The notes beneath the pieces were generated by a model that made no database searches, was not told the DNA's origin, and worked only from the letters and a program-made list of their open reading frames with translations. Made by a program: the position numbers and the translations under genes. Of a DNA stretch of 43,834 bases, positions 14,108 through 17,234 are shown piece by piece. Position 1 is the first letter of the stretch. Each line of letters opens with the position of its first letter. Origin of the DNA: a virus; the UHGV virus genome UHGV-0214218; one strand, 5' to 3'.

Positions 14108-14165
14108 TTGATGTAGATACTATGCACCACCACTCAATCTACGTCAATACCTGTTGTGATAGAAT
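14108..14165. promoter_or_regulatory. divergent promoter region: inverted pair TTGATGTAGATA ... AATCTACGTCAA, leftward TTGACG-19-TAGTAT, rightward extended -10 TGATAGAAT
   Basis: The 12-mers sit at 14108-14119 and 14136-14147 in inverted orientation. The extended -10 is at 14157-14165, ahead of the AGGAGG RBS of the lysis cassette. Confidence 0.45.
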
Positions 14166-14191
14166 TAGTTATTATTTGAACAGGAGGCAGA

Positions 14192-14470
14192 ATGAAACTA
14201 TCGCAACGCGGCATGGAAACGCTTGGGATCACCGATGCCGTAGATATATCGCCTTACATCACCACCGAGACAACGCAGAATCAGTTTGATGCACTGACAA
14301 GCCTCGCCGCCGACATCGGCATTGACACGTTCCGCAAGTCAACACTCCTGAAGAAACACAATCTTCGCTGCTTCTCGTGTGTCGTCGCGCATTTCATCGT
14401 GTGGGGCGAGAAGACCGACAACAAAGTAAAACGCAAAGCTGAAAAAGAGGTTTACTGGTATGGCTATTAG
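14192..14470 (+). CDS. 92-aa protein resembling only the C-terminal lobe of GH24 phage lysozymes (no catalytic N-terminus)
   Basis: QNQFDALTSLAADIGIDTFRKSTLLKKHN resembles the conserved C-terminal QFDAL...STLLKK region of P22/T4-type lysozymes. Strong AGGAGG RBS and no TM segment. Confidence 0.45.
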   Translation: MKLSQRGMETLGITDAVDISPYITTETTQNQFDALTSLAADIGIDTFRKSTLLKKHNLRCFSCVVAHFIVWGEKTDNKVKRKAEKEVYWYGY

Positions 14471-14924
14471 CAAAAACATGAAGGCATTTCTGGATATGCT
14501 GGCGTACAGCGAGGGCACGGATAACGGACGGCAGAAAACCAATAATCATGGCTATGATGTGATTGTTGGTGGATCGCTGTTTACTGATTACTCAGACCAT
14601 CCGCGCAAGCTGATTAGTCTGCCTAAGCTGGGTATCAAATCCACTGCAGCCGGACGCTATCAGGTGCTGGCTAAGTTTTATGACGCGTATAAAAAGCAGC
14701 TGCGCCTGCCTGACTTCTCCCCCGCATCGCAGGACGCCATTGCAATACAGCTAATCCGTGAATGCAAGGCCACTGCCGATATTGAGGCTGGGCGCATTGC
14801 TGATGCCATTCATAAATGCCGCTCCCGCTGGGCTTCATTGCCGGGCGCTGGCTATGGTCAGCATGAGCAGAAGCTGGATAAGCTGATTCAGGTATATAAG
14901 GATGCTGGCGGAGTTGTGGCATGA
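14460..14924 (+). CDS. R: endolysin, lambda R-type lytic transglycosylase
   Basis: Near-colinear match to lambda R over most of its length (KAFLDMLAYSEGTDNGRQKTNNHGYDVIVGG...HPRK...WASLPGAGYGQ), including the catalytic Glu in the SEGTD motif. Confidence 0.9.
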   Translation: MAISKNMKAFLDMLAYSEGTDNGRQKTNNHGYDVIVGGSLFTDYSDHPRKLISLPKLGIKSTAAGRYQVLAKFYDAYKKQLRLPDFSPASQDAIAIQLIRECKATADIEAGRIADAIHKCRSRWASLPGAGYGQHEQKLDKLIQVYKDAGGVVA

Positions 14925-15151
14925 AAAAGCTAAGCAACTGGCTGCTCGGCGCGTGGATTTCGTTCTGCTCACTGTTGCAACTATGGCCTGACGCAATGAT
15001 GCATGTGTGGGTAATGATGCCGGACGACCTGAAAGCGGCACTACCGCCAATCGTGGTCAAAGGTGTGAGCTACTCCATCATGCTGGTTGGTATTCTCAGC
15101 AAGATGCACGGCATGAGGAAGGAAAACCGGAGGCTGCGCAATGGTGAGTGA
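14921..15151 (+). CDS. holin-like membrane protein (76 aa, 2 TM helices, basic C-terminus RKENRRLRNGE)
   Basis: ATGA overlap with the endolysin. Topology and charged tail resemble class II holins/pinholins. Confidence 0.45.
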   Translation: MKKLSNWLLGAWISFCSLLQLWPDAMMHVWVMMPDDLKAALPPIVVKGVSYSIMLVGILSKMHGMRKENRRLRNGE

Positions 15152-15311
15152 GCAAAGAGATGCATTAGCACAGGAATGGGCGCGCATAACCAGCGGGGGA
15201 GGTGATATTGAGTCGGCGTGGCTTGAGCTTAAGCATCGCGCTAAGCTGATTCAATTCGCAACTCGTCGGTGTTTTATATGGAGGCTGCGCAATGATGTCG
15301 ATTCTCGCTAA
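15141..15311 (+). CDS. possible small soluble protein (56 aa) between the holin-like gene and Rz
   Basis: ATG at 15141 overlapping the holin end. Weak support. Confidence 0.25.
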   Translation: MVSEQRDALAQEWARITSGGGDIESAWLELKHRAKLIQFATRRCFIWRLRNDVDSR

Positions 15312-15783
15312 ATACTGGCGACCGCTGGCAATTATTATAATTGTTGTTATCTGCGCGCTGTGGGTTGTCGGCAAAGTGTCCAGTTATGGTGAGCAACAAT
15401 ATAACGCAGGATATGCAAAAGCAATCGCCGAACAGAAGGCCGCAGATGAACAAGAGGAGCAACGACGCAATGCAGAACTGCAAAAGATTCAGGCCGACGC
15501 ACAGCAAAGGGTTGATGCTGCGCGCAATGATGCTGTCAATGCTGCTACTAAGTCTGGCAGGTTGCAGCAACAACTCGCAAATATCCGCAAGCAGCTCGTC
15601 GGATATTCCACCTCTGAGTCCATTGGCAATCCAGCCGCAGAAACCGGAGTTTTGCTTGCCGACGTGCTCAGCAAATCTGTCGAAAGAAATCGACAACTGG
15701 CAGATTACGCTGACAGGGCAAGAGAAGCAGGATTAGCGTGTGAGGCGCAGTACAATTCGCTGCGCAATAAAAAAGCCCCGTAA
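15292..15783 (+). CDS. Rz: i-spanin (Rz-like): N-terminal TM anchor plus periplasmic coiled coil
   Basis: TM segment LAIIIIVVICALWVV, then a Q/A/E-rich coiled coil. An embedded +1-frame lipoprotein gene follows the classic pattern. Confidence 0.75.
   Translation: MMSILAKYWRPLAIIIIVVICALWVVGKVSSYGEQQYNAGYAKAIAEQKAADEQEEQRRNAELQKIQADAQQRVDAARNDAVNAATKSGRLQQQLANIRKQLVGYSTSESIGNPAAETGVLLADVLSKSVERNRQLADYADRAREAGLACEAQYNSLRNKKAP
15515..15736 (+). CDS. Rz1: o-spanin (Rz1-like outer-membrane lipoprotein) embedded in the +1 frame of Rz
   Basis: MLRAMMLSMLLLSLAGC signal with an LAGC lipobox. Pro-rich mature part. Fully embedded in Rz. Confidence 0.65.
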   Translation: MLRAMMLSMLLLSLAGCSNNSQISASSSSDIPPLSPLAIQPQKPEFCLPTCSANLSKEIDNWQITLTGQEKQD

Positions 15784-15800
15784 TGGGGCTTGCGTTTAAT
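15774..15800. terminator. bidirectional terminator (AGCCCC-GTAAT-GGGGCT followed by TGCGTTTAATTTGTTTG)
   Basis: The Rz stop lies in the loop. It also ends the converging leftward operon. Confidence 0.7.
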
Positions 15801-16445: not shown

Positions 16446-16747
16446 TATTTAATCTCTCCATTCAGTTCATTAACAATTAACGTCGCATAGCCAGCAATAT
16501 CTTTCCAGCTATCATCATAGGTCGGGTCGCCATTCAGAATTCGCCCAATCTTGTGCTGAATCATGTCGAGTGCCTCGCGTTGGCTTGGCGTCAGGTTGTG
16601 CCAGCCATCCACTTCGCGCATCACATCTTTCAGCTCCTGCATGATTTCAGCACCGTCTTTGAATTTACCGTATCGACTGCCGCGCTCTGTGATGAGTTGC
16701 TCTGTTGCATTAGTATGGCGCTTATCGCCCGTGATTTGTGAACTCAT
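16445..16747 (-). CDS. hypothetical protein (100 aa)
   Basis: Six-frame ORF. Confidence 0.5.
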   Translation of the reverse strand: MSSQITGDKRHTNATEQLITERGSRYGKFKDGAEIMQELKDVMREVDGWHNLTPSQREALDMIQHKIGRILNGDPTYDDSWKDIAGYATLIVNELNGEIK

Positions 16748-17234
16748 TGTGATGCATTCTCCTAAATTCTTTTATTTTTGCTTCCGCTTCTCTTATGTCA
16801 GAAAAGTAACCAACTGTAACTCTTTTGCCATTTACTCCAACTCTTGCATGCCACTTGTTGTGCGATGAACTCCAGTTAACCCCCTTGACACCGCTAGTGT
16901 TGTTTTTGTTCATTGCTTTGTTGTGGCTATTCTCAAATTTACTGGCCGCCCTTAAATTGCACGCCCTGTTGTCATTGCGAATGCCATTGATGTGATCAAT
17001 CATTTCACTTGCTGATGAGCCATGAATGCATATCCATGCTAATCTATGAGCAAGAAAAGCCCTGCCACAAAGAATTATTTGCACATATCCATCTGGCTTT
17101 AAGTGGCCCGCCACGCTCCCTTTTTCTGCAATCCTATTCCTTGTCTTTAGCCATTTAAATTCCCCAGTTAGTGGATTGTAGTCAAGGTAACTCAATATAA
17201 ACTCCCTACTCGGCTCCTCCCTCCTATGTCTCAT
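16722..17234 (-). CDS. HNH homing endonuclease with AP2 domain (paralogue of the terS/terL-inserted one)
   Basis: FLAHRLAWICIHG...IDHINGIRNDNRACNLRAAS plus GVKGVNWSSSHNKWHARVGVNGKRVTVGYF aligns with the 6134-6646 protein. Confidence 0.8.
   Translation of the reverse strand: MRHRREEPSREFILSYLDYNPLTGEFKWLKTRNRIAEKGSVAGHLKPDGYVQIILCGRAFLAHRLAWICIHGSSASEMIDHINGIRNDNRACNLRAASKFENSHNKAMNKNNTSGVKGVNWSSSHNKWHARVGVNGKRVTVGYFSDIREAEAKIKEFRRMHHNEFTNHGR

Follow-up and report, generated by a model that had tools for sequence, protein, structure and literature searches.

A lysis operon headed by a shortened lysozyme gene

The viral genome UHGV-0214218 was analysed as one stretch of 43,834 nucleotides (nt), referred to here as the window. 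Our subject is its lysis operon (14192-15783, + strand) and above all the first gene of that operon (14192-14470), which encodes a GH24 lysozyme derivative of 92 amino acids (aa), a putative pseudo-lysozyme that retains an N-terminal helix and the C-terminal subdomain and lacks the catalytic lobe. It is followed by the genes for a lambda R-type lytic transglycosylase of 154 aa (14460-14924), a 76-aa class II holin candidate with two transmembrane segments (14921-15151), a 56-aa open reading frame (ORF) without family match (orf56, 15141-15311), and a 163-aa Rz-type inner-membrane spanin (15292-15783). The ORF coordinates agree with those of an earlier annotation made from the letters of the DNA (the sequence-only reading), and all the genes which it described are present.

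The start of each cassette gene overlaps the stop of the gene before. R begins 11 nt inside the 92-aa ORF, and the holin candidate begins in an ATGA overlap with the R stop. As noted previously, the strongest ribosome-binding site (RBS) belongs to the first gene. It reads AGGAGG (14182-14187, + strand), lies 4 nt 5' of the ATG and is the same in phages D10 and Skate; the RBSs of the other cassette genes are GAGG or GGAGG.

The 2.4-kb lysis region is 88-92% identical to about 20 complete genomes of Skatevirus-like siphophages, including Skate, 64795_sal3, LPST10, C1, swi2, seszw and BASEL Bas77-80, and has partial matches in 202 phage records. The short gene was found in 140 phage records (at least 80% protein identity), and the window's R allele also in 140 (at least 90%). 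We read it as a late lysis operon of canonical make-up, with translational coupling, from a Skatevirus-like siphophage.

The short gene as an internal deletion of a GH24 gene

Residues 19-78 of the 92-aa protein match positions 55-114 of the 125 positions of PF00959 (Phage_lysozyme; E 6.7e-10, 39.8 bits against a cut-off of 22.3). The protein matches PHROG 10457 over its full length, and GH24 lysozymes in the PDB in their C-terminal halves only, with E values down to 1e-8. Informative relatives are found in D10 (Salmonella, Skatevirus) and in Klebsiella phage 6991, where a 146-aa full-length GH24 lysozyme is followed by the holin and Rz, and the R gene is absent. With the GH24 genes of both phages the window gene shares its 5' end, from ~100 nt before the ATG through the RBS to codon ~9 (MKLSQRG.E), and here its nt identity to D10 is 94%. 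Compared with the D10 and 6991 lysozymes, the 92-aa protein has an internal gap of 54 residues in both protein and DNA alignments, and its sequence continues from the final turns of the inter-lobe helix. Gone with the deleted block are the beta-hairpin, on which the catalytic Asp and Thr lie, as well as helix B and the greater part of helix C. The natural GH24 C-terminus is complete, and is overlapped by the start of the R gene. Further differences to the GH24 relatives are an extra 5-residue deletion and a Y-x-Y-G-Y tail.

Because its start, RBS and ~100 nt upstream are homologous to the full-length gene of D10, the 92-aa gene is an in-frame internal deletion (~54 codons) of a GH24 gene, and not a 5' truncation. 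The deletion took the catalytic lobe and left the original putative promoter, the RBS and the N-terminal helix in place. The sequence-only reading had seen here a GH24 C-lobe without catalytic N-terminus. The descent and the loss of the catalytic lobe are supported, but the N-terminal helix is kept, as seen from the first ~9 codons. It had also proposed an endolysin replacement that left a fragment behind. The endolysin slot is indeed mosaic and exchangeable, yet the fragment was not made by a 5' cut, and an internal deletion, as an event of its own, took away the catalytic lobe.

Two other arrangements were considered and rejected. For a split enzyme, no GH24 N-lobe was found elsewhere in the window, the best tblastn match (E 0.03) lying inside the portal gene. 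For a frameshift fusion of the 92-aa ORF with R, which was judged by reasoning alone, there is no slippery sequence at the overlap, and the GH108-linked cassettes described below have a plain ATGA overlap.

Two further proteins also deserve mention. P0062 (L058:120-425), GH24-like and 101 aa long, is encoded on a metagenome contig of 2.8 kb that is unrelated to the window and has no recognisable lysis genes beside it. Its N-terminal helix (MQLNEKGKQFIAE) runs directly into the last part of the inter-lobe helix and then the C-lobe, with other boundaries, and it may represent an independent loss of the catalytic lobe. P0038, retrieved in the representative-protein search, has 894 aa with about 15 tandem repeats of ~59 aa, each with a weak similarity to the 92-aa protein in its residues 50-87 (overall E 8e-18), and is probably an assembly or translation artefact.

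A folded subdomain without catalytic residues

AlphaFold2, run on an alignment of 86 sequences, predicts a compact six-helix single domain for the 92-aa protein, with a predicted local distance difference test score (pLDDT) of 95.7 and a predicted template modelling score of 0.88. An earlier run on a shallow family alignment (pLDDT 57) was set aside in its favour. The model lacks the two-lobed GH24 fold with its active-site cleft. Its top Foldseek match in the PDB is the GH24 endolysin 7m5i, with a query-normalised template modelling (TM) score of 0.82, and the alignment spans the N-terminal helix and the C-lobe, passing over the catalytic lobe. Further matches are 9kbs, R21 of phage 21, the P22 lysozyme, and the muramidase domain of SpmX. 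The similarity to lysozyme C-lobes expected by the sequence-only reading is thus present in the predicted structure. For the KFS-SE2 homologue, BFVD holds an independent model, which fits onto ours with a TM score of 0.99. What the 92-aa protein has kept is equivalent to the C-terminal subdomain of T4 lysozyme, which is discontinuous in sequence (residues 75-164 and helix A, 1-12) and can fold as an isolated fragment (bioRxiv 10.1101/353649). The 92-aa protein has no signal peptide and is accordingly predicted to be cytoplasmic, and its C-terminal half is cationic (+7).

The catalytic Glu is present in 51 of 52 full-length homologues. In the short proteins (n=34) the position is held mainly by Asp (15), Asn (6) or Glu (5), and in the window's protein it is Asp15. 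The Asn of the Y/F-N-I-G motif, found in 51 of the 52 full-length homologues, is missing from all 34 short proteins. The GH24 triad (E-x8-D/C-x5-T) is likewise absent from the 92-aa protein, as the segment carrying Asp and Thr is deleted. Conventional muralytic activity is therefore unlikely to judge from the residues, and on sequence and predicted structure the protein cannot be a conventional endolysin.

Public records tell a different story. GenBank and RefSeq entries (Skate, LPST10, swi2, seszw and others) as well as PHROG 10457 label the short gene "endolysin", "lysozyme" or "muraminidase", and in records of relatives the first two genes are annotated as "endolysin (x2)", "lysozyme | lysin" or similar. 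Probably a non-catalytic protein was mis-annotated as "endolysin" and the label then passed from record to record. The "Ex5Dx8T" motif cited for Skate in GenBank was rejected as a catalytic signature: its spacing is reversed relative to GH24, it aligns to non-catalytic positions, and it is absent in the two more distant clades (ii and iii, below).

A separate conserved feature is formed by H56, C60 and C63 (K-H-N-x-x-C-F-x-C; window 14357-14380), which are invariant in 34 of 34 short proteins. These residues are common to the D10/6991 GH24 subfamily and rare in other GH24 lysozymes (7, 4 and 5 of 52, respectively). They may form a metal site or a structural cluster.

An old gene under purifying selection

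Selection was assessed on the window and 32 IMG/VR loci. The short ORF is intact and exactly 92 aa long in all 33 loci. Its mean pairwise nonsynonymous divergence (dN) is 0.041 and its synonymous divergence (dS) 0.363, a ratio of 0.11, compared with 0.096 for the holin and 0.035 for R. The variable columns are distributed as 27/17/72 of 93 over the three codon positions (chi-square ~44).

Exhaustive HMMER and profile searches revealed two further clades with the identical short architecture, and about 55 clusters (90% identity) of 85-98-aa proteins fall in three clades. Clade ii consists of 93-aa proteins, 47-60% identical to the window's protein (P0037, P0187-P0209, L041-43, L057), and clade iii of 85-98-aa proteins with 37-45% identity to it (P0039, P0191, P0194, P0207, L050-56). 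Common to all three clades are the large gap, the second 5-residue deletion and a C-terminal E-x-E-x-Y-x-Y-G-Y tail. A nine-sequence alignment over the three clades (37-52% identity to the window protein) has 25 invariant residues. Comparisons inside clades ii and iii gave dN/dS ratios of 0.02-0.13 with dS between 0.2 and 1.3, and between clades the synonymous sites are saturated. The short gene is therefore old and held by purifying selection in three diverged clades. Two 92-aa homologues with 66-80% identity (P0033, P0029), which at first hinted at deep conservation, were dropped from the analysis: their assemblies are riddled with indels, show frameshifts that compensate each other, and break up the neighbouring genes.

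An exchangeable endolysin slot behind the short gene

The relatives share a layout of portal gene, Mu-F-like gene, a few small genes on the minus strand, short GH24 gene, endolysin, DUF7940 holin, and Rz. In all members with readable context, which lie in syntenic contigs of 45-48 kb, the short gene is the first of the cassette, and in every clade the endolysin start overlaps its end. The endolysin itself varies. In clades i and ii it is of the R type. In clade iii it is of the R type in L052 (and, by its first codons, also in L051), and a GH108 muramidase with a PG_binding_3 domain in L050, L053, L055 and L056. Since the clade iii short proteins that precede either R or GH108 are about 90% identical to each other, retention of the short gene is independent of which endolysin follows.

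Possible traces of an exchange are visible at the junction. Within their conserved ...YYYGY codons, the GH108-linked genes still have the opening 8-9 nt of R (ATGGCTAC). This suggests that GH108 took the place of the R gene just past the R start, the retained R codons being a putative molecular fossil. The string TTATTATTATGGCTAC, i.e., the R start codon and first codons, was observed at the 3' ends of short or full-length GH24 genes that precede GH108 (L053:3250-3297, L055, L056, L050, L060).

The cassettes of relatives occur in several states: GH24 alone, GH24 with R, short gene with R, short gene with GH108, and a GH24 without two catalytic residues with GH108. Two of these states come from full-length genes that end in the clade-specific C-terminus of the short family. 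P0210 (L059:332-763) keeps E, D and T, is apparently active, and is followed by R. P0211 (L060:95-538), in which the catalytic Glu is replaced by Tyr and the Thr by Arg, is followed by GH108 and would, from these substitutions, be a full-length pseudo-lysozyme. Both are known from a single contig of ~1.1 kb each, for which sequencing error or recombination is possible. Exchange also extends to larger units. D10 and 6991 are 80% identical in GH24 and 67% in the holin, the D10 holin is 98.6% identical to the window's, and therefore whole endolysin modules have been swapped between conserved flanks.

These states could be ordered into a path of four steps. GH24 would have been alone at the start. 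It would then have been joined by a second endolysin gene behind it, making GH24 redundant, after which its catalytic residues would have been lost. Finally, the catalytic lobe would have been removed by the in-frame deletion, and helix A too in some clade iii members, where it is also missing today. The polarity of this path is uncertain through recombination, and the full-length forms of L059 and L060 are either ancestral or recombinant. In every short form with a helix A, the F/I-D/E-A-L motif is preceded by exactly 31 residues, in favour of a single deletion event, and the degenerate N-lobe of L060 favours the persistence of a full-length pseudoenzyme.

In the window, an HNH_3 homing-endonuclease gene (with a weak AP2 match) lies at 16722-17234 on the - strand, about 1 kb downstream. 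In the relatives, HNH endonuclease genes flank the lysis cassette variably, upstream in LPST10 and L053/L054, and downstream in seszw and L056. HNH endonucleases could be drivers of module swapping at the endolysin slot.

The remaining parts of the operon

The 154-aa protein matches the lambda lysozyme (PDB 1AM7/3D3D) over its full length (residues 3-153; E 1e-61), belongs to PHROG 90, is 66% identical to lambda R, and keeps the motif of the catalytic Glu, SEGTDNG (AYSEGTDNG). By these sequence features it is the intact and presumably functional endolysin of the cassette. An intact lambda R-like transglycosylase overlapping the 3' end of the first gene, as proposed earlier, is thus supported.

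The 76-aa protein has hydrophobic segments at residues 7-22 and 42-60 and a C-terminal tail of +4, in agreement with the sequence-only reading, and matches the "holin" PHROG 13249 (E 1.6e-49) and the Pfam family DUF7940. It adjoins the endolysin and the spanins, has the sequence characteristics of a class II holin, and is our candidate for this function. A homologue from swi2, expressed as a trigger-factor fusion, showed no activity (PMC8185280). The position of the holin downstream of the endolysin had been pointed out as unusual. The order is real, yet it is no anomaly. In all the relatives that we looked at, also where one full-length GH24 is the sole endolysin, the endolysin gene precedes the holin gene, and this order is ancestral to the phage group and not a rearrangement in the window.

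Rz has a predicted transmembrane segment at about residues 8-30 and matches DUF2514 (E 2e-32) and PHROG 312. The Rz1-type outer-membrane lipoprotein spanin (15470-15736, + strand; PHROG 11621, E 2e-36) has a signal-like hydrophobic segment with the lipobox LAGC and occupies the same position as the annotated Skate o-spanin. It lies in the +1 frame wholly within Rz, as already recognised from the sequence, and together the two have the features of an embedded two-component spanin, i.e., a transmembrane segment in the i-spanin and a lipobox in the o-spanin. A similar set, made up of a class II holin, an endolysin of the transglycosylase type and embedded spanins, is given in the genome announcement of Skate, which passes over the short gene (PMC6606912).

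Between holin and Rz, a 151-nt segment with the 56-aa ORF (15129-15294 region) is flanked by a 15-nt direct repeat (GGAGGCTGCGCAATG), which duplicates the junction of the holin end and the Rz start. The left copy (15129-15143, + strand) contains the end of the holin gene and the start of orf56, and the right copy (15280-15294, + strand) the RBS and start of Rz. The window's 56-aa ORF was found in 2 of 32 related loci. Across these loci the junction is either empty, with Rz starting there, or occupied by at least four unrelated small ORFs that begin at the same ATG (MVSEQR..., MINNAW..., MKARMREIHK..., MRRNKEK...). The junction looks like a cassette-like insertion slot for small genes.

Upstream of the operon, an extended -10-like motif (TGATAGAAT; 14157-14165, + strand) was read from the sequence within a conserved divergent intergenic region, in a stretch that hardly varies among D10, Skate, Klebsiella phage 6991 and the window. 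A consensus scan did not call a + strand promoter there, and we propose the motif only by inference as the putative late promoter of the lysis operon. The operon is closed by a bidirectional hairpin resembling an intrinsic terminator (15773-15791), at a place equivalent to that of the terminator annotated in Skate.

Possible role of the short protein

We favour the explanation, with a probability of about 0.72, that the short gene encodes a pseudo-lysozyme with a non-catalytic accessory job in lysis, next to a canonical lysis set formed by R, the holin and Rz/Rz1. In such a system the R-type transglycosylase would degrade the murein once released by the two-transmembrane DUF7940 holin, and the embedded Rz/Rz1 spanins would disrupt the outer membrane. 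What remains of the GH24 enzyme, the autonomously folding C-terminal subdomain plus, in the window's clade, the N-terminal helix, would act non-catalytically in lysis, whatever the fold of the endolysin. Most likely, it would bind a constant component of the cassette, and thereby affect the timing or efficiency of lysis. The gene would also be a highly translated leader ORF that couples translation of the endolysin. A constant partner is suggested because the DUF7940 holin and Rz/Rz1 are the sole constant neighbours, and our guess from the gene order is accordingly the holin or the spanins. The idea of an antiholin or lysis regulator comes solely from the constant co-occurrence with the DUF7940 holin and from the independence of the endolysin type; a comparison with known antiholins gave no homology. 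A regulatory role gained by the fragment, which the sequence-only reading had allowed for, would be compatible with the data.

Several observations speak against a non-catalytic accessory role. Lysin2 of swi2 (orf51), expressed as a 52-kDa trigger-factor fusion, gave a reduction of about 1 log with or without EDTA (ethylenediaminetetraacetic acid) (PMC8185280), and reviews attribute antibacterial or lytic activity to LysWL60 of LPST10, which locus tags confirm to be gp60. In these review accounts LysWL60 was "characterised" beside the R-type LysWL59, and LysWL59 alone was taken further. Moreover, D10, with a holin 98.6% identical to the window's, works without the short gene, though with a full GH24. 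In D10-type phages this second job might be done by the C-lobe of the full-length GH24, so that a short gene would not be needed. The short protein also evolves about four times faster than R at the amino acid level, with 51% versus ~87% identity between clades i and ii, the R value being an estimate by eye. About 69 genome-reduced seszw mutants all keep the short gene, which is uninformative, as the design of the CRISPR library left out presumed essential genes.

If the activity reported for swi2 lysin2 and LysWL60 is real, a direct lytic role would be indicated instead, with the short protein as a second active lysin, either a minimal muramidase or a non-enzymatic membrane-active protein. 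The labels "endolysin" and "lysozyme" in GenBank, in PHROGs and in the swi2 and LPST10 studies agree with this, as does the C-terminal half with its charge of +7. However, the catalytic subdomain with its Asp and Thr is gone, the Glu position is variably D, N, G or E, the motif Asn is lost in 34 of 34 proteins, and the reported effects are in the order of 1 log, EDTA-independent and obtained with 52-kDa trigger-factor fusions. In addition, the LPST10 authors, as far as the reviews relate, continued with LysWL59 alone, and we regard an active second lysin as improbable. A purely cis-acting leader, in which the ORF stays open so that ribosomes reach the overlapping endolysin start and the polypeptide is functionless, would account for the strong RBS on the first gene and for the overlap of the R or GH108 start with the short stop in all clades, and any endolysin plugged in uses the same junction. 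Coupling requires an open frame, however, and not a conserved sequence, while the three clades, each with a dN/dS of 0.02-0.13, have 25 invariant residues in common, and the length is steady at 85-98 aa. A functionless phage leader would be expected to shrink or drift, and the E-x-E-x-Y-x-Y-G-Y tail is kept even where no used start codon overlaps it, which leaves the pure leader little probability.

The protein could also be functional outside lysis, for example to counter a host or competitor factor or in superinfection exclusion, and simply ride in the late operon. GH24 domains have been co-opted elsewhere, and the SpmX muramidase domain is among the structural and NCBIfam matches. Yet in every context of the three clades the gene is first in the lysis cassette and translationally coupled to the endolysin, and lacking a signal peptide the protein would reach the periplasm only at lysis, so that we give such a role a small chance. 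A recent, decaying scar of endolysin replacement, as the sequence-only reading had considered, would fit the descent from a lysozyme gene and the acquired endolysin adjoining it. We reject it, as scarcely credible, because the ORF is intact in 33/33 loci, without frameshift or stop, at dS 0.36 and dN/dS 0.11, with a 27/17/72 codon-position pattern, and because three clades with 37-60% identity are under purifying selection, with synonymous sites saturated between them. The dS values also exclude a single recent clone.

Comparison with known systems

The GH24 phage lysozymes (P22 gp19, T4 E, and the 146-aa endolysins of D10/6991) resemble the 92-aa protein in their homologous C-terminal subdomain and N-terminal helix and in their place at the head of the cassette, and those of the D10/6991 subfamily have the KHN..C..C motif in common with it. 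Unlike them, the 92-aa protein has lost the catalytic subdomain of ~54 residues and the Asn of Y/F-N-I-G, and its Glu is not conserved. A parallel in architecture is the engineered T4 lysozyme fragment (75-164 plus 1-12), in which helix A is likewise combined with the last part of helix C and the C-lobe. The fragment, however, is a laboratory construct without biological role, whereas the 92-aa gene is natural and under selection.

In SpmX of Caulobacter and Asticcacaulis, a GH24 lysozyme of phage origin has been recruited as a localisation factor, a precedent for a GH24 domain kept in a non-lytic, binding-type role. SpmX is a cellular membrane protein of larger size whose GH24 part keeps both lobes. 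The structural match covers its 148-residue muramidase domain, in contrast to the single subdomain in a free 92-aa phage protein seen here. From the lambda S-R-Rz/Rz1 cassette, which also has an R-type transglycosylase, a holin, and embedded Rz/Rz1, the window differs by its order (pseudo-lysozyme, endolysin, holin, spanins), by the extra first gene and the variable small-ORF slot, and by a two-transmembrane DUF7940 holin with no dual-start motif.

Small cytoplasmic proteins that act in lysis by binding the holin or endolysin are known from T4, with the antiholin RIII, and from mycobacteriophage Ms6, with the endolysin chaperone Gp1, whose gene lies directly upstream of its endolysin. The 92-aa protein may be a functional analogue of these proteins, with no relationship in sequence or fold.

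Significance

The gene family itself is already in the databases as "endolysin" or "lysozyme", and the two-lysin arrangement has been remarked on (PMC8185280). In the literature that we searched, we found no description of a pseudo-lysozyme without catalytic lobe, of its purifying selection in three clades, of its swappable partner endolysins or of the full-length intermediates. In practical terms, PHROG 10457, the RefSeq "endolysin" entries and two enzybiotic studies treat the short protein as a second endolysin. Cultured members exist (BASEL Bas77-80, Skate and seszw), and seszw has already been edited with CRISPR/Cas9.

Tentatively, the short proteins could represent a new class of lysis accessory, a pseudoenzyme derived from a redundant endolysin that binds the holin or spanins, with the full-length GH24 enzymes of the group being bifunctional. 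Lysis cassettes are among the best understood phage modules, and their parts list is short (holin, antiholin, endolysin, spanin or disruptin). A half-lysozyme that is kept over long times while its partner endolysins are exchanged suggests either an unrecognised accessory function in lysis, or a hidden second function of the GH24 C-lobe.

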